A stretch of 64,000 nt of DNA from an uncultured Gemmatimonadales bacterium (GCA_963835535.1 CAWIFL010000003.1:162432-226431), one strand, 5' to 3'; numbered from the stretch's first letter, positions 1 to 35,627 are shown. The notes: generated by a model not told the origin, from the letters alone. Numbers and translations: made by a program.

Positions 1-234
1 CAGCTGGTCTCCTATCTCGTGGCCGCACTTTGCTTCCTGGACCTCTTCCGGCTTGGAAGCAAGCTGGGTGCGGAGCGCATTGGATCGGTCACGCAACGAC
101 AGTTCTGGACGATGTGGATGCCCGGCGGGTTCACAGCAAAAGGTCAGGCGCTCCGCCGTCGTATTAACACCCGTTTTCTACTCGGTGCGATCTTCTTGGT
201 CGCGGGTCTGGTGCTGGGTCGCCTTGCCGTCTAA
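1..234 (+). CDS. hypothetical cassette ORF, 5' end possibly outside window
   Basis: Frame is open from base 1 (track start GTG at 19). C-terminal hydrophobic helix. TAA stop at 232-234 lies inside the attC inverse core GTCTAAC. No family recognised. Confidence 0.3.
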   Translation, partial: QLVSYLVAALCFLDLFRLGSKLGAERIGSVTQRQFWTMWMPGGFTAKGQALRRRINTRFLLGAIFLVAGLVLGRLAV

Positions 235-355
235 CCCGCGCCTGCAGCGGCCGGGCGTCTTCGGCAGGTACGGGCTGGTGAGTGCAACTGCGGTAATGCA
301 GGTGTTGTGTGGCTGGCGGGTGAAGGCCCGCCGCTGAGGCGCAATTTCGTTAGGC
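229..355 (+). repeat. attC-like site 1 (127 bp, subfamily A)
   Basis: GTCTAAC (RYYYAAC) at 229-235 and GTTAGGC (GTTRRRY) at 349-355. Inner arms GCGCCTGCAGCGGCCGGGC / GCCCGCCGCTGAGGCGC are imperfectly complementary. Near-identical to sites at 2303 and 3795. Confidence 0.8.
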
Positions 356-384
356 ACACGGCCAATGCGTAGCGTCAGGATGCG

Positions 385-409
385 ATTCTGGCTATATTGT
401 GGCCAGAAT
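385..409 (+). promoter_or_regulatory. candidate operator/promoter of the RelE-Phd cassette
   Basis: Perfect 8-bp inverted repeat ATTCTGGC (385-392) / GCCAGAAT (402-409) brackets a TATATT -10-like box (393-398) and abuts the ATG at 408. Confidence 0.4.
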
Positions 410-725
410 GCGCTACGAGATTGTCGTGGCTCCGGACGCCAGCAGGGCCTTCAAGGCACTGCCAGCTCGGCGACGTGCGGACGTGTACGACGCGCTCCAA
501 ACGCACTTACGATATGAGCCGACCAAGGTATCCAAGAGCCGCATCAAGCGGCTTCGCGGGCTAAGTCGGCCGCAGTACCGGCTTCGGGTGGGCGACATTC
601 GGGTCTTCTACGACGTCGCGGCCCCCGAGGTCCAGGTCCTGGCGATCATTTCCAAGGCAGAAGCTCACGCGTGGTTGGAGCGGAAGGGGGTGGCCGATGA
701 AGGCGGTCGCGCTGGCGAAGGTTAA
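399..725 (+). CDS. RelE/ParE-family type II toxin
   Basis: About 100 aa. C-terminal motif YRLRVGDIRVFYDV...VQVLAIISKAEA is typical of RelE/ParE toxins. Alternative ATG at 408. Overlaps the downstream antitoxin gene. Confidence 0.75.
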   Translation: MARMRYEIVVAPDASRAFKALPARRRADVYDALQTHLRYEPTKVSKSRIKRLRGLSRPQYRLRVGDIRVFYDVAAPEVQVLAIISKAEAHAWLERKGVADEGGRAGEG

Positions 726-981
726 GGACGATCTGTCCCGCTACCTGCGGCAGGCGGAGCGGGAGGAGATCGTGATCACGCGCCACGGGCAGCCGGCGGC
801 GGTGCTCATCGGCTTCGAGAGCGAGGACGCGTGGTTCGAGTATCGGCTCGAGCACCATCCGGAATTTCTGAGGCGTGTCGCCGAGGCTCGGGCCGACCTG
901 GCCGCGGGTCGGGGTATTCCGCTGCGGCATCTCAAGCCGCGTGTCCGCCACAAGAAGGTGAACGGTCCAAGTGATAGGTAA
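697..981 (+). CDS. Phd/YefM-family antitoxin, 3' end altered by IS insertion
   Basis: N-terminus MKAVALAKVKDDLSRYLRQAEREEIVITRHGQPAAVLIGF matches the Phd/YefM fold signature. The last 3 codons and the stop come from the IS inverted repeat starting at 971. Confidence 0.7.
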   Translation: MKAVALAKVKDDLSRYLRQAEREEIVITRHGQPAAVLIGFESEDAWFEYRLEHHPEFLRRVAEARADLAAGRGIPLRHLKPRVRHKKVNGPSDR

Positions 982-2206
982 CACTTCGTACTCTGGTGAT
1001 GGGTAACACTGTTCGAGCAACTCTGTGATTGCCGCCCCGCCTCCGTGCGGGGCGATCGAGGTGATCCACGATGCGGCCGACCGCCTCGTGGAAGCGGCCC
1101 AGCCAGACCGGGCCGAAGTAGACATTCCAGAGGCCATCGTCGATCTCCTCGAAGCCCACCTCCAGTTCGGCGAGCAGGTGGCTGACATTGACCCAGTGGT
1201 GATTCCAGCGGATCCCGCCGTTGCGGCTGACGAGCCGGCGCTCGAAGTGGCCGGGGTAATCGAGCGGGGCCAGGGCCGCGCGGTAGGGCCGCGGTGAGGC
1301 GGCATAGCAGCTGGCCGGCGTCGCGTCACCCAGCGCCTCATGCGGGCGCTCGGTGTTGTAGCGCAGCCGGAAGCGGTCGAAGCACCGCTGCTGCGCCGCC
1401 AGGTGGGCCTGGGGAGGCCGGGCGGTGGCGGCCTTGAGCGTCTTGTGCATGCGCTCGTGCCGGCCGTTCTGCTCCGGATGGGCGGGCTCGATCAGCTCCG
1501 GCCGAATGCCGAGCCGCACCCACCAGACCGAGAGGGTTGAGAGCCGGCCGAGCGCGTTGGAGGCAAAGGGCTGGCCGTTGTCAGTGCGGAGCCGCTCCGG
1601 CAGGCCGTAGCGGCGAAAGAGCTGCGCGAAGACCGGCCAGCTGCCGGCCGTGGTCGGCGCGACCAGGCCCCGACAGCCCAGCAGGAAGCGGGTCGCTCCG
1701 TCCTGGACGGTGAGCGGGTAGCAGTAGAGCCCGTTGCCGGTGCGGAACTGGCCTTTGAAATCGGCGCTCCACACCGCATTCGGGGCATCCAGCGGCGTCT
1801 GGGGCCGCCCGGCGTGGAAGCGCCGCCGGCTCGGGCGCCGGGGACGGACCCGCCCATGCCGCTCGAGAATCCGATGGATCGTGGTCTTAGTGGGCACCTG
1901 CTCGGCGGGGACGCGGGCCTGCAGGAGCCGCCGCACCTTCCGCGCGCCCCAGGTGTAGCGCCGCTGGAGCTCGAGGATCAGCCGCACCACCGTCGGCGCA
2001 GTGGCCTGCGGGCTGGTGTGGGGGCGATGCGAGCTATTCGTCAGGCCCGCGGGCCCGGCCCGCTCGTAGGCCCGCAGCCACTTGTAGCCGGTCTTCCGGC
2101 TCACCTCGTAGCGCCGACACAGCTCGGCGATCGACCAGCCGGGCCGATGCACATCTTGGACAAAGCGCAGTCGCTCATCCATCGCTGACGTCTCCCTCCA
2201 CGGCAT
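932..2206 (-). CDS. IS481-family DDE transposase (HTH + rve integrase core)
   Basis: N-terminal HTH (WSIAELCRRYEVSRKTGYKWL). Catalytic-core motifs WSADFKG, LRTDNGQPF and HPEQNGRHERMH. The ORF runs through the IR and stops 37 nt outside the element. Likely true start is MDERLRF at 2182. Confidence 0.9.
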   Translation of the reverse strand: MPWRETSAMDERLRFVQDVHRPGWSIAELCRRYEVSRKTGYKWLRAYERAGPAGLTNSSHRPHTSPQATAPTVVRLILELQRRYTWGARKVRRLLQARVPAEQVPTKTTIHRILERHGRVRPRRPSRRRFHAGRPQTPLDAPNAVWSADFKGQFRTGNGLYCYPLTVQDGATRFLLGCRGLVAPTTAGSWPVFAQLFRRYGLPERLRTDNGQPFASNALGRLSTLSVWWVRLGIRPELIEPAHPEQNGRHERMHKTLKAATARPPQAHLAAQQRCFDRFRLRYNTERPHEALGDATPASCYAASPRPYRAALAPLDYPGHFERRLVSRNGGIRWNHHWVNVSHLLAELEVGFEEIDDGLWNVYFGPVWLGRFHEAVGRIVDHLDRPARRRGGNHRVARTVLPITRVRSVTYHLDRSPSCGGHAA

Positions 2207-2281
2207 TGGCGCCTCCCAGTCGAGGCACCTACGTTAGAGAGAGTGTTACCAATCAGCTGTGTACGAGGTGTTACCTATCAC
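971..2281 (-). mobile_element. IS481-family insertion sequence (about 1.3 kb)
   Basis: Terminal inverted repeats GTGATAGGTAACACTTCGTAC (971-991) and GTACGAGGTGTTACCTATCAC (2261-2281) match 20/21, with a second inner GGTAACACT match. Encloses a single DDE transposase gene. Confidence 0.85.
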
Positions 2282-2302
2282 CGGCGAATGTACCAGGCCG
2301 GT

Positions 2303-2428
2303 GCCTAACCCGCGCCTGCAGCGGCCGGGCGTCTTCGGCAGGTACTAGCTGGTGAGTGCAACTGCGGTAATGCAGGTGTTGTGTGGCTGGCGGGTGAAGG
2401 CCCGCCGCTGAGGCGCACTTCGTTAGGC
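2303..2428 (+). repeat. attC-like site 2 (126 bp, subfamily A)
   Basis: GCCTAAC at 2303-2309 and GTTAGGC at 2422-2428. Near-identical to site 1. Confidence 0.85.
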
Positions 2429-2461
2429 TGCCCCCACCTGTGCCCCGGTGCCTCAGGACAC

Positions 2462-2490
2462 TTGCATCTCTGTATATACACCCGTATATT
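2462..2490 (+). promoter_or_regulatory. sigma-70-like promoter of the BrnTA cassette (leaderless-type)
   Basis: TTGCAT (2462-2467), 17-bp spacer, TATATT (2485-2490). The GTATAT motif occurs twice. The ATG at 2496 is only 5 nt after the -10 box. Confidence 0.45.
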
Positions 2491-2495
2491 AGCGC

Positions 2496-2786
2496 ATGGA
2501 GTGTGGTTGGGATCCGGCCAAGAGTGAGGCCAACCTGCGCGAGCGAGGATTCGACTTCCCGTTCGCGACGCTGATCTTCGACGGCCCCACACTCGAGGTT
2601 GAGGATACCCGACGCGACTACGGCGAACGGCGTGTCGTGGCCATCGGGCTCGCCGATGGCCTGCACCTGACCGTGGTCTATACCGATCGCCGCACGCCGA
2701 AGGGGCGAGTCCAGCGACGGATCATCTCAGCGCGAAGGAGCAACCGACGTGAGCGTCGAGCGTTCGATGCGGCCCTCGGGATCTAG
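2496..2786 (+). CDS. brnT: BrnT-family ribonuclease toxin (DUF497)
   Basis: WDPAKSEANLRERGFDFPFATLIFDGP...DYGERRVVAIG...VVYTDR...RIISARRSNRRERR is the characteristic BrnT pattern. Overlaps the downstream antitoxin. Confidence 0.8.
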   Translation: MECGWDPAKSEANLRERGFDFPFATLIFDGPTLEVEDTRRDYGERRVVAIGLADGLHLTVVYTDRRTPKGRVQRRIISARRSNRRERRAFDAALGI

Positions 2787-3096
2787 GCGACAGCCGTCGC
2801 GCGGCCGGGCAGACCTGCGGCGGCTGCGGGATCTGACGGACGTGGCGATTGAGCGCACGTCCCCGCCCGAGCTGGCGGACCTGCCAGCTGACTTCTGGGC
2901 GGAGGCCGCCGTGGTGGTGCCCAGTCCCAAGCGAGCCATCTCGCTCCGGGTGGACGAGGATGTGCTAGAGTGGTTCAAGCGGGCGGGGCCCCGCTACCAG
3001 TCGCGAATGAATGCGGTGCTGCGCAGCTACATGGCCCGCATGCAGGATCTGCGGCGGCCGCGGCAGCGGCGCGGCACCCGTCGGGGGGCAGCCTAA
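2749..3096 (+). CDS. brnA: BrnA-family antitoxin (DUF4415-like)
   Basis: C-terminal ISLRVDEDVLEWFKRAGPRYQSRMNAVLRSYM matches the BrnA signature. TAA stop at 3094-3096 lies inside the attC inverse core GCCTAAC. Confidence 0.75.
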   Translation: MSVERSMRPSGSRRQPSRGRADLRRLRDLTDVAIERTSPPELADLPADFWAEAAVVVPSPKRAISLRVDEDVLEWFKRAGPRYQSRMNAVLRSYMARMQDLRRPRQRRGTRRGAA

Positions 3097-3218
3097 CCCG
3101 CGCCAGCAGTGGACGGGCGCGGCCACATAACGCCCGGCTGACGCTTGGGGTATAGACTAGAAACGGTTACCCAGGCGGCGCGCCAGTCGGCCCGCCGCTG
3201 AGGCGCATTTCGTTAGGC
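3091..3218 (+). repeat. attC-like site 3 (128 bp, subfamily B)
   Basis: GCCTAAC at 3091-3097 and GTTAGGC at 3212-3218. Shares its arms with subfamily A, but the centre (ACGCCCGGCTGACG...TAGACTAGAAACGGTTACCCAGGCGG) is shared only with site 6. Confidence 0.8.
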
Positions 3219-3271
3219 ACACCACGAATCATCGGTGTATCTTCAACGAGAGGCCGATCGGAGCCGACATC

Positions 3272-3496
3272 ATGCCGCCCCAGCAGACCGTCATCCGCGC
3301 AGACCCCCAGATTCTAGGCGGGACCCCGGTGTTTGTCGGAACTCGGGTGCCGGTCCAGACGCTCCTCGACTACTTGGGCGCTGGCCGGCCCCTGGCTCAG
3401 TTCGTCGCTGACTTCCCGACCGTGACCCGCCAGCAAGCCGTTGCCGCCCTCGAGGAAGCGAAGCAGCGCTTGGTGAGCGGTGCGCGTCCTGCTTGA
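3272..3496 (+). CDS. DUF433-family protein (putative antitoxin)
   Basis: IRADPQILGGTPVFVGTRVPVQTLLDYLGAGRPLAQFVADFPTVTRQQAVAALEEA is the canonical DUF433 pattern. Overlaps the next gene. Confidence 0.7.
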   Translation: MPPQQTVIRADPQILGGTPVFVGTRVPVQTLLDYLGAGRPLAQFVADFPTVTRQQAVAALEEAKQRLVSGARPA

Positions 3497-3800
3497 TGAG
3501 TGCCTGCCGAGGCCGCTGAAGGAGGCGCTAGCCGGCCACGATGTGCGGACCGTCCCCGAGATGGGGTGGGCAGGCAAGAGCAACGGAGATCTCCTGCGTT
3601 TGGCGGCACCCCAGTTTGACGTCTTCTTGACTGTCGATCGCGGCATCCAGTACCAGCAGAATCTCGAGGGCGCTCCCCTCGCCGTCATCACCATGGCGGC
3701 ACCCAGTAACGATATCGATGCCCTTCGCCCCCTGATCCCAGACGTACTGCGCGCGATGGCGAGCATCAAGCGGGGCCAGTTCGTCCGGGTGGGTGCCTAA
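3480..3800 (+). CDS. DUF5615-family PIN-like protein (putative toxin partner of DUF433)
   Basis: MRVLLDECLPRPL...VRTVPEMGWAGKSNGDLLRLAA..FDVFLTVDRGIQYQQN matches the Mut7-C/DUF5615 pattern. TAA stop at 3798-3800 lies inside the attC inverse core. Confidence 0.65.
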   Translation: MRVLLDECLPRPLKEALAGHDVRTVPEMGWAGKSNGDLLRLAAPQFDVFLTVDRGIQYQQNLEGAPLAVITMAAPSNDIDALRPLIPDVLRAMASIKRGQFVRVGA

Positions 3801-3920
3801 CCCGCGCCTGCAGCGGTCGGGCGTTTTCGGCAGGTACTGGCTGGTGAGTGCAACTGCGGTTGTGCAGGTGTTGTGTGGCTGGAGGGTGAAGGCCCGCCGC
3901 TGAGGCGCACTTCGTTAGGC
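3795..3920 (+). repeat. attC-like site 4 (126 bp, subfamily A)
   Basis: GCCTAAC at 3795-3801 and GTTAGGC at 3914-3920. Confidence 0.85.
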
Positions 3921-3929
3921 GGCCGAACA

Positions 3930-4418
3930 ATGAGACGCTCCCTGGTCGGTATTGCGCTCGCCGCGGCGCTGGCGCTCGCGTGCCGTGAACCGGTCGCGCC
4001 CGAGCCCCTCGGGCAGCGCCTCTCCGCCTGGCAGCCGGGCGACTCCGCGACGCTGATACATGACGGCTTCCCCTGCGGGCTGACATCGTCGTCGCGCATG
4101 GTAATCCAAGACTCTACCACATGGCGGTCGGTCTGGGACAGCGCCGTCTGCACCATACTCCCCCAGCCGCCGCTGCCGGTCGTCGATTTCACTTCCTACG
4201 ACGTGCTTGCGGCGGTGAGTGACGACTTTGACAGTTGGATTACCATCGACAGCGTAGTTCGCTTCGAGCTCGGAGCTCGGGTCTACGTCACCGAGTGCCC
4301 CGTGCTCGACTACACCCAGAGCTATAGTCTCACGTACCACATGGTCCGGACGCCACGCTTCGATGTGGAATCATGGCGCACCTACCGACTGAATCGCTGG
4401 TGCTGGACGGCTGCCTAA
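3930..4418 (+). CDS. putative lipoprotein, function unknown
   Basis: The internal ATG at 3930 gives MRRSLVGIALAAALALAC, a signal peptide with a lipobox Cys (the track start at 3873 lies inside attC). TAA stop at 4416-4418 is inside the attC inverse core. Confidence 0.6.
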   Translation: MRRSLVGIALAAALALACREPVAPEPLGQRLSAWQPGDSATLIHDGFPCGLTSSSRMVIQDSTTWRSVWDSAVCTILPQPPLPVVDFTSYDVLAAVSDDFDSWITIDSVVRFELGARVYVTECPVLDYTQSYSLTYHMVRTPRFDVESWRTYRLNRWCWTAA

Positions 4419-4507
4419 CCAGCGCCAGCAGCGGCCGGGCGCTTGCGGCTCGTGGAGTTGTGTGGCTGGCGGGTGAGGGCCCGCCGCTGAGGCGCACTTC
4501 GTTAGCC
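4413..4507 (+). repeat. attC-like site 5 (95 bp, short variant of subfamily A)
   Basis: GCCTAAC at 4413-4419 and GTTAGCC at 4501-4507 (one deviation from GTTRRRY). Arms are conserved and the central part is deleted. Confidence 0.7.
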
Positions 4508-4722
4508 GCACCCTCGCCCACGACGGCGCGGCACAGACGATGGGGCGCCGTGATCTGCTGCGCCACATCCAACGTCAGCTTCCCGTCGCACAGGCTGGAT
4601 GACCTCGGGCGCGTTGTCGCGCGCCGCCCGTTGCCTCCTACAGCTCGGCCTGCCCTGTAATGATCCGGTGACGCGCCGGTGACGACCAGTCCTTGTCTTT
4701 TCAAGCGTGGGCAAGATGAGTC

Positions 4723-4835
4723 GGCCAACTGCTGTGGAGGGGCCTCACGCCCGGCTGACGGCGGTGCTGTAGACTAGAAACGGTTACCCAGGCGGGTGGA
4801 GTGGTGGCCCGCCGCTGGGGCGCACTTCGTTAGGC
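4723..4835 (+). repeat. attC-like site 6 (about 113 bp, subfamily B, degenerate R'')
   Basis: GTTAGGC at 4829-4835. Centre and right arm match site 3. The left core is only GGCCAAC (4723-4729). Confidence 0.6.
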
Positions 4836-4871
4836 AGCCGCTGGAGCGCCGGACTTTGAACGGGGACTGAA

Positions 4872-5039
4872 ATGAGAAGCCACACGACCACCGCACTCTA
4901 CGTAGTCCTGATGGCAGCCGTGATCGTCGCGATCGATGTCCTGTTCTTCAAGAACCGGCTCTGGGAACGGCTGACGGTGAACGTTGGAATCGTCCTCGTC
5001 TTCGCGGCCTTCTATTTCAGATTCCTGAAGCGTCCATGA
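4872..5039 (+). CDS. small two-helix membrane protein (55 aa), absent from the ORF track (<60 aa)
   Basis: Hand translation: MRSHTTTALYVVLMAAVIVAIDVLFFKNRLWERLTVNVGIVLVFAAFYFRFLKRP*. Two hydrophobic helices. It is the only cassette-sense ORF in this cassette. Confidence 0.5.
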   Translation: MRSHTTTALYVVLMAAVIVAIDVLFFKNRLWERLTVNVGIVLVFAAFYFRFLKRP

Positions 5040-5047
5040 GCAAGACG

Positions 5048-5201
5048 GCCCTGAACTGACAACTGGAGTCACCGCTGGCCCGACGGTTTGCCGGCGTGCG
5101 GCCCACGGGAGGCTGAACTGGCTGGTGCGTGCGAGGGAGTTATGCAGGTGTCCGGTGGCTGGCGGGCATGAGGCCCGCCGGAGAGGCGCACTTCGTCAGG
5201 C
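5048..5201 (+). repeat. attC-like site 7, degenerate (array end)
   Basis: The right half (CTGGCTGGTG...GGCCCGCCGGAGAGGCGCACTTCGTCAGGC) is homologous to subfamily A, but the core is GTCAGGC and the left core is unclear. The left boundary is approximate. Confidence 0.45.
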
Positions 5202-5258
5202 GGTTGAAGTGAGGTAATTTCGCCAGGTGGGAGCTCCCTTCTGTACACGCGCGACGAG

Positions 5259-5777
5259 GTGGCAATGCATAAGGCCGTGATTGTCGCATTCGCTCTCATC
5301 TGTGCGCCCGTGGGGCTGTCCGGGCAGGCGTTGCATCCCGACTCGCTCTTCCCGCGCCTCATCGGGCACTGGGTGCTCCGGGGCACGATCGCCCGGCAGC
5401 AGACCGTCCACGACGTGACCTTCGAGTGGCTGCTGGGCCACGAGTACGTGCAGATGCACGAAATGTCCCGCGAGCGAGGGTCGAACGGCACGCCGGCCTA
5501 CGAGGCGGTTGTGCTGTTCGGCCGCGACCCGCAGACCGGGGCCTATGCCTGCATGTGGCTGGACAACACGGCCGCGGCAGCCTTCGATCCCCAGGGCGTC
5601 GGCCGCGGATCCGTGGCCGGCGATTCGGTGCCCTTCCTGTTCCACTACACGGCGACGGCCAGCTTTCACACCACGTTCGTGTATGATCGCGCTACGGACA
5701 CGTGGCAGTGGCATATGGACAACGACAGTTCCGGTGTGCGGCGGCCCTTCGCCCGTGTCACCCTGACGCGCCGCTAG
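5259..5777 (+). CDS. secreted DUF1579-like protein
   Basis: Signal peptide MAMHKAVIVAFALICAPVGLSGQA. The LIGHWVLRG...FEWLLGHEYVQMH pattern resembles DUF1579. Confidence 0.5.
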   Translation: MAMHKAVIVAFALICAPVGLSGQALHPDSLFPRLIGHWVLRGTIARQQTVHDVTFEWLLGHEYVQMHEMSRERGSNGTPAYEAVVLFGRDPQTGAYACMWLDNTAAAAFDPQGVGRGSVAGDSVPFLFHYTATASFHTTFVYDRATDTWQWHMDNDSSGVRRPFARVTLTRR

Positions 5778-6149
5778 CCGGCCAGGGAGCCGGGGCCGCA
5801 TGGAGGCGTAAATGCTCGTGGACTCGTGCATAAATGCGATCAAGCCGGAGAACTACGAAGGCATTCGGCTCTACTGGGCGCCCCGTGACATCATCGCCTT
5901 GTTTTGGGGTGGCCACCGACCCCGAGCACTCGGTGGAGACTGAGCCATGAACCGCTGGCATAAAATGGCTGCGACGATCGCATGACCCCTCGAACTCCGG
6001 CGGCAGCGGCATAGCGCTCGCCGCCTCAGCGCCGCGGAGATCGTGGCAGACCCCGAGCTGGCCGGCCGGCTTGCCATGGCCGTACAGGCACTCGCGTCCG
6101 CCGCCGAGGACGCACGGCAATGAGCCGTCATCATCTCAAGGAGAGGCCC

Positions 6150-6929
6150 ATGCGCATCGCAAGCTGGGGTCATGCGGTCTTTGCCGCGACGATGATCGCC
6201 CTTGGGATCCTGGGCCTGATCCAAGGCGCTTTCACACCGATATGGCTGCCCGTGTCCAAGGGTGTGCCCGCGCGAGAGGTACTGGTCTATCTCTCCGCCG
6301 TCGTCCCTCTGGTATCCGGCATCGGGCTGCTCTGGCGGCGCTCCGCCGCCGCCTCGTCCCGCGTGCTGCTCGGCTTTCTCCTCGCTTGGCTGCTGCTGCT
6401 GGATGCGGTCCACCTCGCCCTCGCTCCCGGGATGGAGCTGACGTGGGCAGCCTGCAAGACCGCGGCGATGGTGGCGGCCGCCTGGGCGCTGTACGTCCGG
6501 TTCGCCGGCGACCGCGACCGGAAGCGCCTCGGTTTCGCCTCCGGCGACGCGGGGCTCCGCATCGCCAGGGCGCTCTACGGCCTGGCCCTGATCCCGTTCG
6601 GCATAGCGCACTTCACCTATATCGAGAGAACCACTTCCCTGGTGCCTGGTTGGCTGCCATGGCACTTGGCCTGGGCGTACTTCTTCGGCTGTACCTTCAT
6701 CGCCGCGGGCCTGGCGGTGCTCATCGGCGTGTGTGCACGGCTGGCGGCCATACTGTCGGTGGTGCAGCTGGGCATGTTCACGCTGCTGGTGTGGGTACCC
6801 GTCGTGGCAGCAGGACCCAGCGCCTCGGATTGGGGCGAGTTCGTCGTCTCCTGGGCGTTGACGGCCGCCGCTTGGGTAATGGCGGATTCCTACCGCGGCA
6901 GGCCCTGGCTCGCCGTGGGCAAGGCCTGA
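6150..6929 (+). CDS. integral membrane protein (DoxX-like, uncertain)
   Basis: Multiple hydrophobic helices. AAGGAGAGG Shine-Dalgarno lies 5 nt before the ATG at 6150 (track start 6120). Confidence 0.55.
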
Positions 6930-6943
6930 GCGAGCCTCAGAGT

Positions 6944-7342
6944 CTACCGCTGCTTCGCCGCCGAGCGATTCCGGGCCACCGCGGCCTTCACGAGCGCCTT
7001 GAACGCCCTCGCATCGACCTTCTCCCCTTCGGGGATGTCGAGCGCCCTTCGCGTGCCGCCTTCCAGACTGGAATTGAAGAGGCGCGCCGGGTCCGGGACC
7101 GTGGCCCCCCGGGCGAACGTGAGCTTCACGGCCTTCTTGTACGCCTCCCCGGTGCAGACGATCCCGTGGTGCGACCAGGCCGGGTTGCTCCACTTCCACT
7201 CCTCGGTCATCTCGGGGTCCGCTTCCAGGATCAGCGCCCGCATGCGGGCCAGGGTCTCCCCGCGCCATCCCTCCAGCTCGCGGATCCGCTGGTCGATGAG
7301 CCGGGAAGCGGACTTCCCGGTCGCCGGCTCGCGGCCCATCAT
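6944..7342 (-). CDS. DUF1801 (YdhG-like) domain protein
   Basis: Internal start MMGREP. The motif EWKWSNPAWSHHGIVCTGEAYKKAVKLTFARGA is typical of DUF1801. The upstream part of the 259-aa track ORF overlaps the VOC gene. Confidence 0.7.
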   Translation of the reverse strand: MMGREPATGKSASRLIDQRIRELEGWRGETLARMRALILEADPEMTEEWKWSNPAWSHHGIVCTGEAYKKAVKLTFARGATVPDPARLFNSSLEGGTRRALDIPEGEKVDARAFKALVKAAVARNRSAAKQR

Positions 7343-7734
7343 GAGCCCCACGTGAGCTGCACGAGCTGGATCAGGTTGCCGCAGGTGTCGTCCAGCACCG
7401 CGATGATGGAGCCCGTCGTGGCCGTGACCGGCACGGTGAACTTCACGCCCCCCGCGGCCAGTCGATCGTGCTCGGACCGGACGTCCTTCACCAGGAACTG
7501 GGCCGCCGGCCGGCCCTGGCCGCGGAGCGCCTGCTGGTAGGCTTTGCCGGCGGGGTTGGCGTTCGACTCCAGCTGGAGCTCCGCGCCCTCCGGGTCCTCC
7601 GGCGAGGCGACCGTGAGCCAGCGATAGTTCCCATTGGAGAAATCCGCCTTCTTCCGAAAGCCAAGCTTGTCCGTGTAGAACTGCAGCGCCTTCTCCTGAT
7701 CGTCCACGTACAGGCCGGTCCACTTGATGCGCAT
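7339..7734 (-). CDS. VOC/glyoxalase-family protein
   Basis: MRIKWTGLYVDDQEKALQFYTDKLGF... glyoxalase fold pattern. AAGGAGG lies 6 nt upstream of the ATG at 7734. Confidence 0.8.
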   Translation of the reverse strand: MRIKWTGLYVDDQEKALQFYTDKLGFRKKADFSNGNYRWLTVASPEDPEGAELQLESNANPAGKAYQQALRGQGRPAAQFLVKDVRSEHDRLAAGGVKFTVPVTATTGSIIAVLDDTCGNLIQLVQLTWGS

Positions 7735-7804
7735 GGCTACCTCCTTGTTCACGGTCACAGTGACGAGTATCCGAGGACAGGGCGTCCCGACTGCCTCGAC
7801 CGGC

Positions 7805-8245
7805 TCAGGGAGTCCTCGCGAGCAGGTCTTCGAGCTTTCCTCCCATCATCTTCCAGCCGTAGCGCGCGCCGCCGAAGTTCTGCCCCTGGTCCGGCTTGAA
7901 GCCCGAGTGCACGAGGGCGAGGCGCGTGCCCGACGCCGTGGGCTCGAGCGTGAAGGTCACGACGGTGGCCATCGCGCCGACGCCCCAGTCGTACCGGAGC
8001 TTCCGGTGCGTTTCGATCTCGGCGATCCGGCACTGCACGACGCCGTCCCAGCCGCCGACCGGCTGCGTCTTGAACGTGAACGCCGCCCCGCGCTCGAGCT
8101 TGAGACCGATGACGGGCAGGAGCCACGCCGCGAGCAGGTCGGGTTCCGTGAGCGCCCGCCACACCTTCTCCGGCCGGTGCGGCAAGTCGAACTCGAGCGC
8201 GATGCATTCCTTCTGCGCCTTCGCCGTCTTGTCGATGAGGGTCAT
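7805..8245 (-). CDS. SRPBCC/AHSA1-domain protein
   Basis: The internal start MTLIDK overlaps the arsR stop. The pattern LEFDLPHRPEKVWRALTEPDLLAAW...TFTLEPTASGTRLALVHSGF is present. Confidence 0.8.
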   Translation of the reverse strand: MTLIDKTAKAQKECIALEFDLPHRPEKVWRALTEPDLLAAWLLPVIGLKLERGAAFTFKTQPVGGWDGVVQCRIAEIETHRKLRYDWGVGAMATVVTFTLEPTASGTRLALVHSGFKPDQGQNFGGARYGWKMMGGKLEDLLARTP

Positions 8246-8580
8246 GGGTCCATCTTCTCCAGCAGCCGTTCCAGCCGATCGACGCGCTCCGTCCAGAAGG
8301 CGCGGTAGTGCGCGATCCAGTCGACGAGCGGCTTCATCCCGCGCGGCTCCACCCGGTAGTAGACCCGGCGCCCCTCGCGCCGGCCGTGCACCAGGCCGGC
8401 CTGCTTCAACGCCGCGAGGTGCTGCGATACCGCCGGCTGCGAGATATCGAAACGCGCCGTGAGGTCCTTCACCGCCACTTCCCCACGCGTGAGCGACTCG
8501 AAGATCGCCCGGCGGCTGGGGTCCGCCAGCGCCTGGAAGATCCTGTTCTCGACGACGGCAACGCTCTGCACGCATAACAT
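8242..8580 (-). CDS. ArsR/SmtB-family transcriptional regulator
   Basis: IFQALADPSRRAIFESL...VKDLTARFDISQPAVSQHLAALKQAGLV is a winged-HTH signature. Confidence 0.85.
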   Translation of the reverse strand: MLCVQSVAVVENRIFQALADPSRRAIFESLTRGEVAVKDLTARFDISQPAVSQHLAALKQAGLVHGRREGRRVYYRVEPRGMKPLVDWIAHYRAFWTERVDRLERLLEKMDP

Positions 8581-8606
8581 ATAAGCTGCTGCTTATGGCT
8601 TGTCAA
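8578..8606 (-). promoter_or_regulatory. sigma-70-like promoter with a palindromic operator for the arsR operon
   Basis: On the minus strand: TTGACA (8606-8601), 17-bp spacer containing the palindrome ATAAGC-N4-GCTTAT (8581-8596), then TATATG (8583-8578) overlapping the annotated ATG. Confidence 0.4.
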
Positions 8607-8671
8607 GCGCGCGGATCGGGCCGCCCTCGGCAGCCTCGTGCCGCTAACGGAGTGACGACGTACCGGATAGA

Positions 8672-9121
8672 ATGTCTGGCGTGGGCACCGTGCTTGCCCC
8701 GTACGCCGGTGGAGGTCCCAAGGCCGTGACTGATGCCGCCAGCACCGAACGCACAGGCTGGGCCCGTCTCTGGGCCACCGCGCATCCGTTCGCCCGTCCC
8801 ATGCCCCGCGCCGGCGCGTGGTATCCCGTGGTGGGGGAGGCGTCGGGCGAACGGGCCGTGCTCGAGGTGCGCGGAAAGCGGGTCGCGGTCCGGAAGACGC
8901 TTCTGGAGTTCCGGCCCGAGCGGCCCAAGGTCTTCACGGTCGTCGTGCGTTCGCGCGAAGCCGCGGCCACGCTGTTCGCGACCTCCGGCTCCGACATCGC
9001 GCGGGTCTACGCGGTCTGCCCGGCCTGCGCCCAGCGCGTGCCGGTCGTCGAGGACCAGGTGGCGGCGACGTGTGCCAAGTGCGGCCACGAGGCCGAGATC
9101 GCGTGGTGGGAAACGGACTGA
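8672..9121 (+). CDS. hypothetical protein with C-terminal zinc ribbon
   Basis: CPAC...CAKC pair near the C-terminus. No family recognised. Confidence 0.4.
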   Translation: MSGVGTVLAPYAGGGPKAVTDAASTERTGWARLWATAHPFARPMPRAGAWYPVVGEASGERAVLEVRGKRVAVRKTLLEFRPERPKVFTVVVRSREAAATLFATSGSDIARVYAVCPACAQRVPVVEDQVAATCAKCGHEAEIAWWETD

Positions 9122-9218
9122 GCGTGGGGCGAGGCAGATGGCGCGGGCGGCATGGGGTTCCGTGGCTCGCTGAGGTCCGCTGTCCACGCACCCTCACGTT
9201 CACGGGCGACGGCGGTCC

Positions 9219-9551
9219 GTGAACGGCCACTACCGCAGAGTGGCCAGTTGGCGCTACGATTCATACGAGGCCTGTCGACAGAAGAACGACCCGGACGACT
9301 GCGTCTCCCTCATGGTCGTGAGCGTCTTCTTCGAGAACATGGGCCTGCTCCTGCGGCGCAAGTTCGCGCCGATCACACTCCTCGACGACCTTCTCTCCGG
9401 CCCGATCCTCGAGATCCGGCCCAAGGTGAGGCCGGTCCGGGTGGGATTGCGCAAGGAGCACAACCAGCCGTCCTGGGCCGAGTGGGGCGAGTTCTCCCAC
9501 GACGCGATGGCCGATCGGATGGCACGGGTGAACCGGAACGGGTCACGATGA
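9219..9551 (+). CDS. hypothetical protein
   Basis: ORF with plausible composition. Weak resemblance to DUF4760-type proteins only. Confidence 0.35.
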   Translation: MNGHYRRVASWRYDSYEACRQKNDPDDCVSLMVVSVFFENMGLLLRRKFAPITLLDDLLSGPILEIRPKVRPVRVGLRKEHNQPSWAEWGEFSHDAMADRMARVNRNGSR

Positions 9552-9584
9552 GGGTAGCGGGCGGCAGCCCGCCGCCGCGGCACA

Positions 9585-10088
9585 GTGCGTCACCAGCGGA
9601 AGGAGCACATGGCGGCTAATACACGTCAGGATCTGATCGACTCTCTCATCTCGGAGTTCCCCGATCTCTGCGCGGAACTCGAGGCCTCGGCAGGACTGCT
9701 CTCCGCGGAGATGGGCACGTTCGCCCTGTTCACGCAGGAGGCCAAGGAGCGCGGAGACCTTGGCACGTACGAACGCTGCCTCACGCTCGCGGACAGACTC
9801 TTCGATCAGGCCGACGCCGCTCTGGCGGGCGCCTTCCGGACCTCGTACCTCGAGCACCTGGAGTTCGAAGGCTCCGTGGGTCGCGCGGCATGGAAACTGG
9901 TTCCGCCTCGACTTCAGGCCGTCTGGAACCAGCTCGCGGCCGAGAACCGGCGGCTCATGGCCCTGCCGCAGAAGCACGGCCAGCTGCAGCGCGGCCCACA
10001 CGAGCGTGGCCCACAGGGGCAGGGCCCACTGGCGCCGCGCCGCGACGCGAGGAAGAAGCGCCCGCCGCGGCGAGGCCGCCGGCGTTGA
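9585..10088 (+). CDS. hypothetical protein
   Basis: Helical N-terminal part and an Arg/Pro-rich tail that may be over-extension. No family recognised. Confidence 0.35.
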   Translation: MRHQRKEHMAANTRQDLIDSLISEFPDLCAELEASAGLLSAEMGTFALFTQEAKERGDLGTYERCLTLADRLFDQADAALAGAFRTSYLEHLEFEGSVGRAAWKLVPPRLQAVWNQLAAENRRLMALPQKHGQLQRGPHERGPQGQGPLAPRRDARKKRPPRRGRRR

Positions 10089-10123
10089 GCTCGATGCCCC
10101 CTTCCGCCTGAGGGAGGCTCCGG

Positions 10124-10645
10124 TTGCGAACAGATGACGCTGGGGACCAACGGCTCGCCGCATGGCGCACGAGCTGTCGCGTCACCGAGTATCTGGTCTC
10201 TCACATCCCGGCACAGCTGTGGCGCGCCACGATCCCCGGGATCCCGACCCGCACTGTCCGCAGCATCGCCGCGCACCTGCACAACGCGCGGTGCAGCTGG
10301 GTGCGGACCCTGGGAGGCGAGCACGGGCTCGCCATCCCGACACGTGTGGACCAGCGGACCGTCACGCCCCGACAGCTCGCATCGGCCCTGAGGCGGAGCG
10401 GTCGCGGCATCGCGGCCCTCCTGGAGCTCGGCGACAGGCACGGCGGCCGGGTGCCGCCAGCGAAGGCCTACGTGTGGCGGAACCTCGCGCTGGACGTCGA
10501 GCACGTCCTGACATACTTCGTCGCCCACGAGGCGCACCACCGGGGCCAGATCGTGATGGGGGCGCGCCAGCTCGGCCACCGGTTTCCGCCGAGCGTGACG
10601 GCAGGGCTCTGGCAATGGCGCGAAGGGCGCGGCAGCAGACCGTGA
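10124..10645 (+). CDS. DinB-family protein
   Basis: Histidine triad pattern (IAAHLHNA ... HEAHHRGQIV) of the DinB/YfiT four-helix bundle. Confidence 0.7.
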   Translation: MRTDDAGDQRLAAWRTSCRVTEYLVSHIPAQLWRATIPGIPTRTVRSIAAHLHNARCSWVRTLGGEHGLAIPTRVDQRTVTPRQLASALRRSGRGIAALLELGDRHGGRVPPAKAYVWRNLALDVEHVLTYFVAHEAHHRGQIVMGARQLGHRFPPSVTAGLWQWREGRGSRP

Positions 10646-10694
10646 GCGACGCACACGCCAGGCAGCCGGAAGGACGAGACAAGCCGGAGGCACA

Positions 10695-11123
10695 ATGAAC
10701 GCCCAGTCCTCGGGCCGTCAGCTACCTCCGCTGCCGGAGCAGCGGCGCGCGCGGCTGCGCCGCGTGGAGCGGCGGTTCTTGCTGGGGCTCGCGACGCTGG
10801 TCCTGCTGGTGGTCGCGTGGGGGGCGCTCTCGGGCGCCGTCCGCCAGTTCCCCCGCTCGGACACGGTCGCGCAGAAGGTCGAGACCGCGGTGCAGTTCGC
10901 CTGCGGGTTCCTGAGCCTGCTGGGCGCGCTCACGACCTTCGTATGGCGGCGCTCGGCCTCGCGCATCCTCCCGGCTTGGGCCGGCTCGCTCGCGGCGGCG
11001 GCCGGCCTGTCGGCCCTCGTCTGGGGCCCGCCGCAGCCGGCGGTCGCGCTGATCTTCGCCGCCGTCGCGCTGCTCATTGGGCTCGGGGTCATCCGGGTGC
11101 TGCGCAAGGGACTGGCGACGTGA
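10695..11123 (+). CDS. membrane protein, function unknown
   Basis: Four hydrophobic segments. No family recognised. Confidence 0.45.
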   Translation: MNAQSSGRQLPPLPEQRRARLRRVERRFLLGLATLVLLVVAWGALSGAVRQFPRSDTVAQKVETAVQFACGFLSLLGALTTFVWRRSASRILPAWAGSLAAAAGLSALVWGPPQPAVALIFAAVALLIGLGVIRVLRKGLAT

Positions 11124-11145
11124 CCGCCCGGTTCCGGGAGTCGTG

Positions 11146-11568
11146 ATGGCGCGCGCCTTGATCTTCCTCGCGCTCATCCTCATCGCCGGCGCCTGCGGCT
11201 ACGCGCTCTGGCGCCTGGTCGTCCTGCGGCGCCGGCGCGGGGCGCGCGTCCAGCAGGAGACCTCCCTGCCCTACGAGGTCTGGTACGCGCTCCGTCAGAC
11301 CGACGAGGCGGCGGCGGAGCGGTTCCTCACGGCCCTCTGGGACCAGCTCCAGGCGGAGCGCTCCCGCCTCTGCGGCCAGGCGGCGATCGGCGCCGCCGTT
11401 CCGACCCTGCTCGAAGTCCAGGTCGCCCAAGTGGCCGGCGCGGCGGATGCGCTGCGGCGCGCTCACGCCGGCGAGCCGGCGCTCCCCCCCGCCCTCGCGA
11501 TCCTGGAGGAGCGGGTGCGGCGTCTGTGCGGCGACGTCGCCGCGCTGCAGCCCGGCGGCAATCCATGA
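11146..11568 (+). CDS. membrane-anchored hypothetical protein
   Basis: Internal start MARALIFLALILIAGACGYALW (N-terminal TM). Overlaps the start of the cysteine synthase gene. Confidence 0.4.
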   Translation: MARALIFLALILIAGACGYALWRLVVLRRRRGARVQQETSLPYEVWYALRQTDEAAAERFLTALWDQLQAERSRLCGQAAIGAAVPTLLEVQVAQVAGAADALRRAHAGEPALPPALAILEERVRRLCGDVAALQPGGNP

Positions 11569-12494
11569 CCGTGCTCGACGCGATCGGCCACACACCGCTG
11601 GTGGAGCTGCAGCGGCTTCCGGCGCCCGGCGCCGCCCGCGTGCTGGTGAAGCTGGAGTTCGCCAATCCCACCGGCAGCATGAAGGACCGGATGGCCGTGG
11701 CCGCGATCGATGCGGCGGAGGCCGACGGCCGCCTCAAGCCCGGCGGCACGGTCGTGGAGTACACGGGCGGGACGACGGGCGTCTCGCTCGCCTTCGTCTG
11801 CGCGGCCAAGGGCTACAAGGCGCGCATCGTCTTCTCCGACGCGTTCAGCCAGGACAAGAGACTGATGATGGAGGCCCTCGGCGCCGAGGTCAGCCTGGTG
11901 CGGAGCGGCGGCTCCGGGATCACGGAGAAAGTGGTCCGGCAGATGATCGAGGAGGCCCGCACGCTCGGCGGCCGGCCCGGACACTGGTGGTGCGATCAGC
12001 TGAACAACCGCGACGCGATCGCGGGCTACGTCCCGCTCGGCGAGGAGATCCGGGAGCAGGCAGGACGCGTGGACGCCTTCATCCATTGCGTGGGGACGGC
12101 GCACTCGATCCACGGCGCGACACGCGGGCTCCGCAAGGGCGGAGCGACGGTGCACGTGGTGGCGGTGGAGCCCGCCGAGTCGGCGGTGCTCGCGGGCGGG
12201 CCGGGCGGCAGCCACGGCATCGACGGCATCGGCATCGGGTTCGTGCCGCCGCTCTGGGAACCGCACGAGGTGAACGAGCTGATGACCGTCTCCACGGCGG
12301 ACGCGAAGGCGATGGCGCGGCGTCTGGCTGCCGAGGAAGGCGTGTTCGCCGGCACGTCGTCGGGGGCGAACGTCGTGGCGGCGCTCCGGGTCGCGCGGCG
12401 TCTGGGCACGGGTGCCACGGTCGCGACGATCATGGTGGACTCGGGTCTGCGCTACGTCAGCACCGACGTCTTCCGGAAGGAGACCAGACCATGA
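11565..12494 (+). CDS. cysteine synthase / PLP-dependent beta-synthase family
   Basis: GHTPLVEL...KLEFANPTGSMKDRMA (PLP lysine motif) and GGTTGVSLA. Start MTVLD at 11565. Confidence 0.85.
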   Translation: MTVLDAIGHTPLVELQRLPAPGAARVLVKLEFANPTGSMKDRMAVAAIDAAEADGRLKPGGTVVEYTGGTTGVSLAFVCAAKGYKARIVFSDAFSQDKRLMMEALGAEVSLVRSGGSGITEKVVRQMIEEARTLGGRPGHWWCDQLNNRDAIAGYVPLGEEIREQAGRVDAFIHCVGTAHSIHGATRGLRKGGATVHVVAVEPAESAVLAGGPGGSHGIDGIGIGFVPPLWEPHEVNELMTVSTADAKAMARRLAAEEGVFAGTSSGANVVAALRVARRLGTGATVATIMVDSGLRYVSTDVFRKETRP

Positions 12495-12985
12495 TGCTTC
12501 GGCTTCGCGGAACGCTCCTCGCCCCGCTGCTCATGATCGGAGGCTGCGCAGCGCCCTCCTCGAGCCCGATGACTGCGGCGCACGCGTCGGCGATCGTGGA
12601 CAGCGTGAGGACGACTCTGACGGCGTTCGCCGATCGGCTCAACGCGGCGGATCGGGATTCTCTCCTCAAGTTCTATCGCGACGATCCCCGCTTCGTCTGG
12701 GCTGCGGACGGCCGGGTCGCCACGCACTCCGTCGCCGAGATCGGCGCCCAGCTGAAGGCGCTATCCGGATTCCCGCACTGGCACATCGAGTACGTCAAGC
12801 CCATGATCGTGCCGCTGGCGCCCGGCGTCGCGGAGGTGGCGACGGAGTACACCATGACGCTGGCCGATTCGGCTGGGAAAGCGATTTCGTTTGTCGGCGC
12901 CAACACGATGGTCTGGGTCGCGTCGCCCGGAGGCTGGAAGATCCTGGGTGGCCACAGCTCGTCGCCGGCAGCGCCGGCTCGCTAG
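12491..12985 (+). CDS. SnoaL-like/DUF4440 lipoprotein
   Basis: Signal peptide with lipobox LLMIGGC. NTF2-like pattern (FYRDDPRFVWAADG ... WKILGGHSS). Confidence 0.55.
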   Translation: MMLRLRGTLLAPLLMIGGCAAPSSSPMTAAHASAIVDSVRTTLTAFADRLNAADRDSLLKFYRDDPRFVWAADGRVATHSVAEIGAQLKALSGFPHWHIEYVKPMIVPLAPGVAEVATEYTMTLADSAGKAISFVGANTMVWVASPGGWKILGGHSSSPAAPAR

Positions 12986-12992
12986 CGTCGCG

Positions 12993-13520
12993 GTGAAAGC
13001 CTCGGTTTTCGTCGGCGTCAGCGTGGACGGCTTCCTGGCCCGTCCGGACGGCGGTCTCGACTGGCTCCCGCAGGGCGACGGCGAGGACCACGGCTACACC
13101 GAGTTCTTCGCATCGGTGGACGCGGTGGTCATCGGGCGCAAGACGTACGAGGTCGTCCTGGGCTTCGGCTCCTGGCCGTACGGCAAGAAGCCCGTCTTCG
13201 TCCTGAGCACGAACGCGCTCGCGCCGGCGCCGAGGGGGGCGGTATTGGAGCGCCTGTCCGGGGAACCAGCGGACATCCTGTCGCAGCTGGCCGCCCGCGG
13301 GATCCAGCACGTCTACGTGGACGGCGGCGTCACGATCCAGCGCTTTCTGCGCGCCGGCCTGATTCAGCGACTCGTGATCACCCGCGTGCCCGTGCTCATC
13401 GGTGAGGGGATCGCACTCTTCGGCGTCACCGGACGCGACATCACCCTGAAGCACGTCGCGACGCGCCAGATCGCGGGCGGCATGGTCCAGAGCGAGTACG
13501 AGGTACTCGCCCCGACGTAG
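12993..13520 (+). CDS. dihydrofolate reductase-like (RibD C-terminal domain) protein
   Basis: VFVGVSVDGFLARPDG.LDWL...VDAVVIGRKTYE...VYVDGGVTIQRFLRAGLI. GTG start at 12993. Confidence 0.75.
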   Translation: MKASVFVGVSVDGFLARPDGGLDWLPQGDGEDHGYTEFFASVDAVVIGRKTYEVVLGFGSWPYGKKPVFVLSTNALAPAPRGAVLERLSGEPADILSQLAARGIQHVYVDGGVTIQRFLRAGLIQRLVITRVPVLIGEGIALFGVTGRDITLKHVATRQIAGGMVQSEYEVLAPT

Positions 13521-13521
13521 C

Positions 13522-13881
13522 CTAAGGCTTGGGCTTCGGAGCCGCGTGCGTCGTATCGCGCGGCAGCTCGTGCTCCACGCGCCCGACGAGCGCGCCGTTC
13601 GCCGCACTGACGTTCACCTCGTAGGTCCCCGGCTGGTTCGGTACCGTGAAACCGAACGACCAGATCAGCTGGCCGTTCTCGTTCTCCAGCTCCAACGCCT
13701 TCACCGTGCCCGTCGGGATCTTCGCCTGCGCGACCTTGAGGGCGGAATCCTCGCGCACCTTGGCCTGCCTGAGGAGCCGGGGCGGGACCTCCCGCTTGTA
13801 GGTCGGCCGCTGGGCCTGGGCGACACCGGCGATCGCGACCAGCGCCGCGAGCCCGACGAGCTTCGTGACGTTTCTCATCAC
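13522..13881 (-). CDS. PepSY-domain secreted protein
   Basis: Signal peptide plus ALKVAQAKIPTGTVKALELENENGQLIWSFGF...YEVNVSAANGALV. Confidence 0.65.
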   Translation of the reverse strand: MMRNVTKLVGLAALVAIAGVAQAQRPTYKREVPPRLLRQAKVREDSALKVAQAKIPTGTVKALELENENGQLIWSFGFTVPNQPGTYEVNVSAANGALVGRVEHELPRDTTHAAPKPKP

Positions 13882-35524: not shown

Positions 35525-35627
35525 AGTGCCCCAGGCACCCCGCCGCGACGCGAGACATCACTTAGCGCTGCTGCCTTCGGGGCCCTGACGCGGTTCGTGC
35601 GCTCTCGCCCGACGGACCTGGGGCCCC
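35525..35627 (-). ncRNA. ffs: signal recognition particle RNA (small, 4.5S type)
   Basis: The minus strand reads GGGGCCCCAGG...CGCGUCAGGGCCCCGAAGGCAGCAGCG...GCCUGGGGC. This gives the domain IV motif (GUCAGG-CC-GAAGG-AGCAGC) with complementary 5'/3' ends. The position upstream of dnaX is the conserved one. Ends are approximate. Confidence 0.7.

Follow-up and report, generated by a model that had tools for sequence, protein, structure and literature searches.

Integrase-distal end of a probable sedentary chromosomal integron array in an uncultured Gemmatimonadales bacterium

We analysed a 64-kb stretch of DNA (hereafter the window; GCA_963835535.1 CAWIFL010000003.1:162432-226431) from an uncultured Gemmatimonadales bacterium. 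Its left end, from base 1 to about position 6119, is very probably the integrase-distal end of a sedentary chromosomal integron array of a Gemmatimonadales-type bacterium. Because the array is truncated at base 1, its own length is only partly visible. A preliminary description made from the sequence alone had already proposed the distal end of a chromosomal integron here, and this proposal is borne out by an integrase and a candidate attI at the orthologous locus of two relatives (loci L095 and L134) and by cassettes that behave as modules.

The repeats that separate the cassettes were traced through their arms. A conserved right arm (GGCCCGCCGCTGAGGCGCAnTTCGTTAGGC, a 30-mer searched with at most three mismatches) had six matches, all on the plus strand and all before position 5201, where none is expected by chance; site 1 supplies a seventh copy, which carries a 1-nt indel. 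The left arm (GCCTAACCCGCGCCTGCAGCGGCCGGGC, 28 nt) had five matches, again all on the plus strand before 5201, and shuffled sequence gave zero matches to either arm. Arm pairs span about 95-128 nt and are located 3′ of a short plus-strand gene or gene pair. We scored the sites, which are annotated on the minus strand, with a covariance model (R1) built from 59 members of the attC family; being derived from the family itself, R1 is no independent test of it. Sites 1 (229-355; 137.7 bits), 2 (2303-2428; 145.6 bits) and 4 (3795-3920; 143.8 bits) are intact. The bottom strand of site 1 folds as DNA with an R box, an unpaired spacer and two bulges, and site 2 likewise gives an attC fold. Site 3 (3091-3218; 85.7 bits) is intact and has a different central region that it has in common with site 6 (repeat family D14), and site 5 (4413-4507; 90.2 bits) has intact arms, a short centre (95 nt in total) and GTTAGCC as its R′ core. 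Two further sites are degenerate. Site 6 (4742-4835; 24.5 bits) keeps a good right arm and has an eroded left arm (GCCAAC and a deletion at about 4723-4745) with many non-pairs, and DNA folding did not give an attC-type fold for it; site 7 (5078-5201; 34.6 bits) has the cores GCCCGAC and GTCAGGC and broken pairs. Beyond these seven, an R1 scan of the 64 kb gave no match better than E~0.1. An Rfam scan of the window at gathering thresholds returned only a signal recognition particle (SRP) RNA, and is uninformative on attC since Rfam holds no attC family.

Seven attC-like copies had been described, and they are present where they were placed, all on one strand, including a decayed last one ending in GTCAGGC; two of them (sites 6 and 7) proved degenerate, an eighth, vestigial site had been missed, and site 7 begins at about 5078 rather than about 5048. 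The boundaries given for every copy (GCCTAAC or GTCTAAC on the left, GTTAGGC on the right) hold for sites 1-4, and fail at sites 5, 6 and 7 through the GTTAGCC end, the shortened GCCAAC with its deletion and the GTCAGGC end, respectively.

By definition, an integron attC site has RYYYAAC and GTTRRRY cores, which pair to form the R box; its central spacer is unpaired, its terminal structure varies, and extrahelical bases project from the bottom-strand arm that faces the AAC triplet (PMC5027507). In single-stranded DNA folds of sites 1, 2, 4 and 5, the minus strand forms a 7-bp R box, an unpaired spacer of 5 nt against 2 nt, and a stem with two single-base bulges on its 3′ arm. Over the sites compared, the longer side of the spacer measures 5-7 nt, the centre is variable, and total site length ranges from 95 to 137 nt. 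In an alignment (A3) of 59 family sites gathered from the window and related loci, 57 of them distinct, standard pairs occupied 97.8% of cells across the distinct sites, compared with 30-42% when partners were slid by one to three columns. The R-box pairs were 98% paired and the 17-bp stem 97.7%, with two-sided changes at four of the stem's pairs. Such compensatory changes were found at five pairs, including GC-CG exchanges at columns 28-121 (45 versus 12 sites) and 29-120 and a CG-UA exchange at 24-126, and 0 of 500 shuffles equalled the observed values. The bulges fall at alignment columns 130 and 123. The first is C (G in attC_aadA7), and the second varies freely in identity and is a gap in four sites. 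Counted from the outer end of R″ they take positions 16 and 23, numbers that match G16 and T23 of attC_aadA7 (PMC5027507) if both counts start from the same end. The imperfectly complementary arms, two bulged bases and unpaired spacer of the preliminary description thus recur in the bottom-strand DNA folds and in the 57-site covariation. With each testable structural feature present, the identification of the window repeats as integron attC sites is supported, and we infer that they would recombine.

Cassettes were delimited at the crossover point of the right-hand (R′) core, G/TT, and all lie on the plus strand. The window opens in the 3′ part of a truncated cassette (1-349, with the crossover G at 349), in which a membrane-protein-like open reading frame (ORF) ends at 234 with a TAA inside the R″ core; this part had no homologue in the other arrays compared. 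Cassette 1 (350-2422; 2073 bp, or 734 bp minus an insertion sequence (IS) and its target duplication) encodes a ParE-like toxin (408-725) and a Phd/YefM antitoxin (697-981), with Pfam E-values of 5e-11 for PhdYeFM and a weak 0.0012, under that family's cutoff, for ParE_toxin. Cassette 2 (2423-3212; 790 bp) encodes a BrnT toxin (2496-2786; Pfam 6.5e-23) and a BrnA antitoxin (2749-3096; 1.5e-16). In cassette 3 (3213-3914; 702 bp), Pfam identified a DUF433 protein (3272-3496) and a DUF5615/PIN-like protein (3480-3800), a probable toxin-antitoxin pair. Cassette 4 (3915-4501; 587 bp) encodes a 162-amino-acid protein (3930-4418) that matches no family and has a lipoprotein-like signal sequence, cassette 5 (4502-4829; 328 bp) has no convincing ORF, and cassette 6 (4830-5195; 366 bp) encodes a hydrophobic protein of 55 amino acids (4872-5039). 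A seventh, terminal cassette (5196-6119) encodes a secreted-type protein of 172 amino acids (5259-5777) without a Pfam match; in all, three small cassette proteins had no family match in Pfam. Wherever the last ORF reaches an intact left arm, the TAA inside the GCCTAAC or GTCTAAC core serves as its stop codon (232-234, 3094-3096, 3798-3800 and 4416-4418 in the window, and 8952-8954 in the uninterrupted cassette 1 of locus L001). The six cassette sizes calculated earlier (2073, 790, 702, 587, 328 and 366 bp) were reproduced, except that cassette 1 without its IS measures 734 bp, as the L001 copy shows, and not 762 bp; the earlier statement that each site follows one short gene or pair is generally right and does not extend to cassette 5.

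Other metagenome arrays contain four of the window's cassettes in full, at 99.7-99.9% identity and beside different neighbours. Each recurs over its full length with one mismatch: cassette 2 (790/790 nt) in L001 and L002, cassette 3 (702/702 nt) in L001, cassette 4 (587/587 nt) in L007 and L008, and cassette 5 (328/328 nt) in L007. Rightward, identity falls to 15-45% within 5-7 nt after G/TT, just past the TTAGGC core, and leftward it breaks at -5/-6 wherever the upstream neighbour differs. Whole cassettes have thus been exchanged with breakpoints at the core, the pattern predicted by recombination at R′. Residue-for-residue copies of the window's BrnT and 162-amino-acid proteins are encoded on metagenome contigs that consist of short co-directional genes and are rich in the same attC repeat.

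A scan of metagenome contigs from soil, peat and wetland found at least 120 stretches with this attC family. Among all fetched loci, the sites lie on one strand in 93 of the 93 loci that have two or more (331 sites), with a median spacing of 684 bp (interquartile range 588-848 bp), and the array fills the whole of one 28-kb relative contig, where it has at least 25 sites. A single array, on contig_48056 (L001 and L007), holds the DUF433/PIN cassette three times and the 162-amino-acid cassette twice; on the same contig one ParE/RHH pair is opposite in strand to every other cassette gene. Two short contigs with the same attC family (L004, 2.6 kb; L006, 4.0 kb) are binned in a 'Chloroflexi' metagenome-assembled genome (MAG), reflecting either mis-binning or inter-phylum cassette transfer. 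L008 (positions 1-2025) and also L009 contain non-attC DNA of lower GC that carries two ORFs of about 265 amino acids and meets, at CTTCG/TTAGGC, a cassette also found in the window. We considered this segment of L008 as an array start with an integrase and rejected it, as the two ORFs have neither a family match nor similarity to IntI; the junction may reflect insertion at a secondary site or an array start of another kind.

The array had been thought to end at 5201. Alignment with L095 carries it about 0.9 kb further, to about 6.1 kb: homology to L095 begins at window position 6075, not 5201, and a decayed right arm just ahead of an ATG at 6120 is common to both sequences, joined in L095 to an intact left arm and in the window to an eroded left arm only. 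This shared arm identifies an eighth, vestigial site in the window and with it the seventh, terminal cassette, a stretch that is absent from the orthologous locus in L095. Site 8 (about 5988-6119, minus strand) comprises a left arm (CCTCGAAC..GGCAGCGGCATAGCGC) and a right arm (GTCCGCCGCCGAGGACGCAC; 6096-6115), is without a GTT core and lies directly 5′ of the ATG; at 5.3 bits with R1 it is not significant alone, and it was recognised by the alignment with L095. To its right follows a chromosomal flank (6075-11276) conserved in L095 (95%) and L134 (91%), which, judged from these alignments, is the fixed right-hand boundary of the integron locus. Towards this boundary the sites deteriorate. Sites 1-4 have the cores GCCTAAC or GTCTAAC and GTTAGGC, and deviation from this consensus grows stepwise across sites 5-8, with site quality going from 90 to 24.5 and 34.6 bits and then to a vestige. 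Similar decay precedes chromosomal genes in L003 (99.8, 95.4, 57.1 and 45.8 bits). Since the last three sites are decayed, the last cassettes, including the terminal one, are probably fixed. The array DNA (window 1-6000) has a G+C content of 63-67%, with 71% in the IS, and the adjacent chromosome (6000-16000) 68-74%.

The integrase was sought in related loci by tblastn with IntI1, a query validated on the NCBIfam integron-integrase equivalog (799.5 bits, full length). The homologue found in L095 is full-length and that in L071 partial, and this attC family is present at both loci. The L095 integrase scores 436 bits on TIGR02249 (cutoff 265) and is 52% identical to class 1 IntI1, with a gap-free alignment through the integron-specific domain and all catalytic residues kept. 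L095:5907-11107 matches window 6075-11276 at 95% identity over 5203 nt and so, by sequence identity and position, L095 is the orthologous locus of the window's array. The second relative, L134 (a 17.6-kb contig), has an intI 88% identical to that of L095, four strong attC sites, co-directional genes and the window's flank (window 6710-7272 versus L134:13004-13570, 91% identity). In both flank-sharing relatives, then, an integrase that passes TIGR02249 and a candidate attI lie to the left of arrays of the window's attC family. The candidate attI, which separates intI from the first cassette, shows blocks of conservation in L095, L091 and L071; its last bases are CCAATGATTG/TTAGGC.

Twenty-two contigs, the longest of 142 kb, carry a third integrase variant (84% identical) beside housekeeping genes, and most of them stop 0.4-0.6 kb past intI. 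Loci L130-L133 also carry intI, and in L130 the second cassette past the gene is the window's BrnTA cassette, at 96% identity. In NCBI the homologues are named as Gemmatimonadales proteins, and Gemmatimonadales integron integrases are already annotated there. At each of these loci intI is on the same strand as the cassettes. The earlier placement of attI and intI to the left of base 1 therefore agrees with L095 and L134, with the refinement that the gene is co-directional with the cassettes, not divergent from them. Two loci from Gemmatimonadales MAGs, L003 and L005, each cover the first 8 kb of a contig, and arrays stand at contig ends there and in L130-L133. As arrays of this family regularly end contigs, the window probably starts inside its array for the same reason, and we think it likely that the integrase lies beyond the left edge of the window.

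Together with the SRP RNA gene (bacterial small type; Rfam RF00169, 45.9 bits; 35525-35624, minus strand), which supports a chromosomal origin of the window, flanks with housekeeping genes on the intI contigs of up to 142 kb argue for a chromosomal setting. The traits of sedentary chromosomal integrons (PMC8618304) are accordingly seen here as chromosomal flanks, a long array in a relative and homogeneous attC sites, the intact ones scoring 86-146 bits with one family model.

In the mechanism that we propose, the unit would be a short gene or toxin-antitoxin pair followed by an attC of about 126 nt. When single-stranded, the minus strand of the window would form a hairpin with a 7-bp R box (GCCTAAC with GTTAGGC), an asymmetric unpaired spacer and an L stem whose arm facing the AAC triplet bears two extrahelical bases. 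An integron integrase, presumably encoded in this genome, would bind the hairpin and exchange strands at G/TT, so that recombination between two attC sites would excise cassettes and reinsertion would take place at attI beside the integrase gene; intI of this lineage would lie to the left of the array, on the same strand as the cassettes. Toxin-antitoxin cassettes would probably stabilise the array.

Several observations weigh against this interpretation. Folding with DNA parameters predicts greater stability of the top strand in 55 of the 57 distinct sites (mean difference 5.0 kcal/mol) and of the bottom strand in 2; the top strand is G-rich, with a GC skew of +0.19. In mobile integrons the bottom strand of attC tends to be energetically favoured and purine-rich, which is a trend and no strict criterion (PMC5027507), and the strand stability of the present family is opposite to it. 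That the minus strand is the one recombined nevertheless follows from where the bulges and attI lie and from gene orientation; if the folding predictions hold, the family may rely on its extrahelical bases alone for strand choice. Promoter and terminator scans of the cassettes found no signal of either kind above chance. The window has no attI and, as the preliminary description had noted, no integrase, whether tblastn was run with IntI1 or with the L095 IntI as query. One relative, L091, has attI-like DNA (2241-2483, about 70% identical to that of L095) followed by cassettes, with unrelated ORFs and no integrase in the 2.2 kb upstream. Finally, arrays of this family break assemblies, and the cassette order in the window might in principle be partly mis-assembled.

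The missing integrase bears on a rival explanation, in which the integrase has been lost or separated and the cassettes are frozen or moved only by an integrase elsewhere. A cluster of attC sites without an integron integrase is known as a CALIN (PMC8618304), and the window taken alone, with several attC sites, no integrase in view and an array cut by the window start, resembles one. L091, which may be a case of intI loss and points to such loss occurring in this group, and the decay of the distal attC sites fit a CALIN as well. However, the orthologous loci are complete integrons, since each of the two relatives with the window's right flank has an intact integrase upstream of its array; five window sites are intact; and the near-identity of the window's cassettes to copies in other arrangements implies recent exchange. 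Moreover, contigs of this group tend to end in the array, so that under either explanation intI would be expected to be missing from the window. We consider a CALIN unlikely. Misassembly, by which strain variants of a repeat-rich array would have been collapsed or misjoined and the cassette order left partly wrong, draws on the occurrence of the same cassettes in other orders on contigs of related samples and on the arrays that stand at contig ends in L003, L005 and L130-L133. Yet the distal order of DUF433/PIN cassette, 162-amino-acid cassette and ORF-less cassette is independently present in contig_48056, and the chromosome junction is reproduced in L095, which makes such an artefact quite improbable; even if true, it would leave the identity of the element unchanged.

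A more radical alternative holds that the repeats are unrelated to integron recombination and are palindromes of the repetitive extragenic palindrome (REP) or bacterial interspersed mosaic element (BIME) type, miniature inverted-repeat transposable elements (MITEs) or shared terminator hairpins. The repeats are indeed palindromic, intergenic and 3′ of genes, and three of them contain a weak terminator-like hairpin pattern. This alternative, which the preliminary description had tied to copies spread through the genome in both orientations and to a genome lacking intI, conflicts with the absence of any further copy in the remaining 58 kb of the window, the completely uniform orientation in the 93 multi-site loci, the attC-specific core boxes and bulges, the exchange of whole cassettes with breakpoints at the core, and the physical linkage of an integron integrase in relatives' loci. 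We regard it as extremely improbable, and retain the reading of the window's left end as part of a chromosomal integron array.

Compared with the Vibrio cholerae superintegron, with its VCR attC sites, and with Xanthomonas integrons, the element is similarly chromosomal, with long arrays, homogeneous long (about 126-nt) attC sites within a lineage, many toxin-antitoxin cassettes, proteins of no known function, duplicated cassettes and IS insertions, all of them traits typical of sedentary chromosomal integrons (PMC8618304). It differs in its phylum, Gemmatimonadota, in an integrase co-stranded with the cassettes, in having two rather than three extrahelical bases, and in an attC top strand that is predicted to be the more stable. 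An intI on the same strand as the cassettes is known from the 'atypical' integrons of Treponema (PMC3607928), and the co-directional intI of the relatives resembles the Treponema denticola type in gene layout; the integrase here is 52% identical to IntI1. With the class 1 integron (IntI1, attC_aadA7) the element shares the RYYYAAC/GTTRRRY cores, down to an identical GTTAGGC, two extrahelical bases numbered 16 and 23, and the conserved additional domain and catalytic residues of the integrase. Unlike the class 1 integron, it is sedentary and not on a transposon or plasmid, its sites are twice as long and nearly identical to one another, it is without resistance genes, and its gene layout is co-directional.

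The IS inside cassette 1 belongs to the IS481 family (959-2294, minus strand; 1336 bp) and is flanked by a 3-bp duplication, AGG (956-958 and 2295-2297). Its boundaries come from alignment to the intact 734-bp cassette in L001 (8335-9068), the first 609 nt of which are 100% identical. Subterminal inverted repeats lie at 971-985 and 2267-2281. The transposase has the Pfam domains rve, rve_3, LZ_Tnp_IS481 and HTH_28/32, and its homologues are named IS481 family transposases in NCBI. Its ORF (932-2206) has no stop inside the IS and reads 27 nt into cassette DNA (932-958); in relatives such as L135 a TGA lies within the terminal repeat region of the IS. The insertion has altered the last codons of Phd/YefM and cut the gene off from its TAA stop in the attC core. 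We also considered cassette 1 as a chimera of two cassettes and rejected this, as the alignment is explained by a plain IS insertion that duplicated 3 bp, and this IS is also present in a different cassette elsewhere.

The end of the window IS stands 8 nt from the GCCTAAC core of attC site 2. All of eight independent insertions show a similar spacing: 7-10 nt (mostly 8) separate the IS end GGTACATTC from a GTTAG core, and these intervening bases differ each time, a pattern that suggests targeting directed by the core. Four of these insertions are in this attC family (the window, L001 at about 10015-11351, L008 and L012) and two are by attC sites of other families (L135 and L136); the remaining two are at a non-integron site in a complete Gemmatimonadota genome (L137; CP070812.1) and on a short contig (L138). 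The element is always antisense to the cassette genes.

Other mobile elements are known at attC sites, namely insertion sequences of the IS1111-attC group (PMC3971601, PMC11187229) and group IIC-attC introns (PMC3001079). Like both, the window IS has a fixed position relative to attC. It differs from them in that its transposase is of the DDE (rve) type, its insertion point is external to the site, at a distance of mostly 8 nt from the core, and a 3-bp duplication results. Our literature search found no description of IS481-family targeting of attC. We rate at about an even chance the proposal that the element represents an undescribed group of DDE insertion sequences that would recognise the GTTAG core and insert about 8 bp outside attC in antisense orientation, or that the attC family would rely on its bulges alone. 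In the related arrays, IS110-family elements occupy the identical L′-arm position (GCCCGCCGCT/GAGGCGCA) in two different attC sites of L001 (about 6111 and about 14554), and another (L007, 10901-11857) begins right after the GTTAG of an R′ core; in their fixed positions relative to attC they resemble the IS1111-attC group. L136 encodes a group II intron reverse transcriptase (RVT_1, GIIM; 7241-8488) near an attC-like site of an array, and this gene may belong to a group IIC-attC intron.

Elsewhere in the window, a 9-nt tandem repeat (TGGCGCCCA-like, about 13 units) lies in coding-looking DNA at 25144-25260. At 54530-55696 and 62467-63192 lie diverged tandem repeats with units of about 258-276 nt, which probably encode repeated protein domains, and, separately, two 300-nt direct repeats, 95% identical and 426 nt apart.

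The window element is an ordinary member of a well-known kind, and it leaves the understanding of integrons unchanged. It represents a large chromosomal integron from the soil phylum Gemmatimonadota, where integrons are already listed (PMC8618304) but, as far as we found, undescribed in detail. Its attC family is abundant in soil, peat and wetland metagenomes and could serve as a taxon-specific marker that assigns environmental cassettes to their host. What a specialist would not expect is confined to the IS targeting and the reversed strand asymmetry. If the former is true, core-directed IS481-type elements would be a third kind of attC-directed mobile element beside the IS1111-attC group and group IIC-attC introns. 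The arrays of this lineage thus offer natural material for two questions, how the recombined strand is chosen when the folding-energy asymmetry is reversed, and how two different transposase families home on attC.

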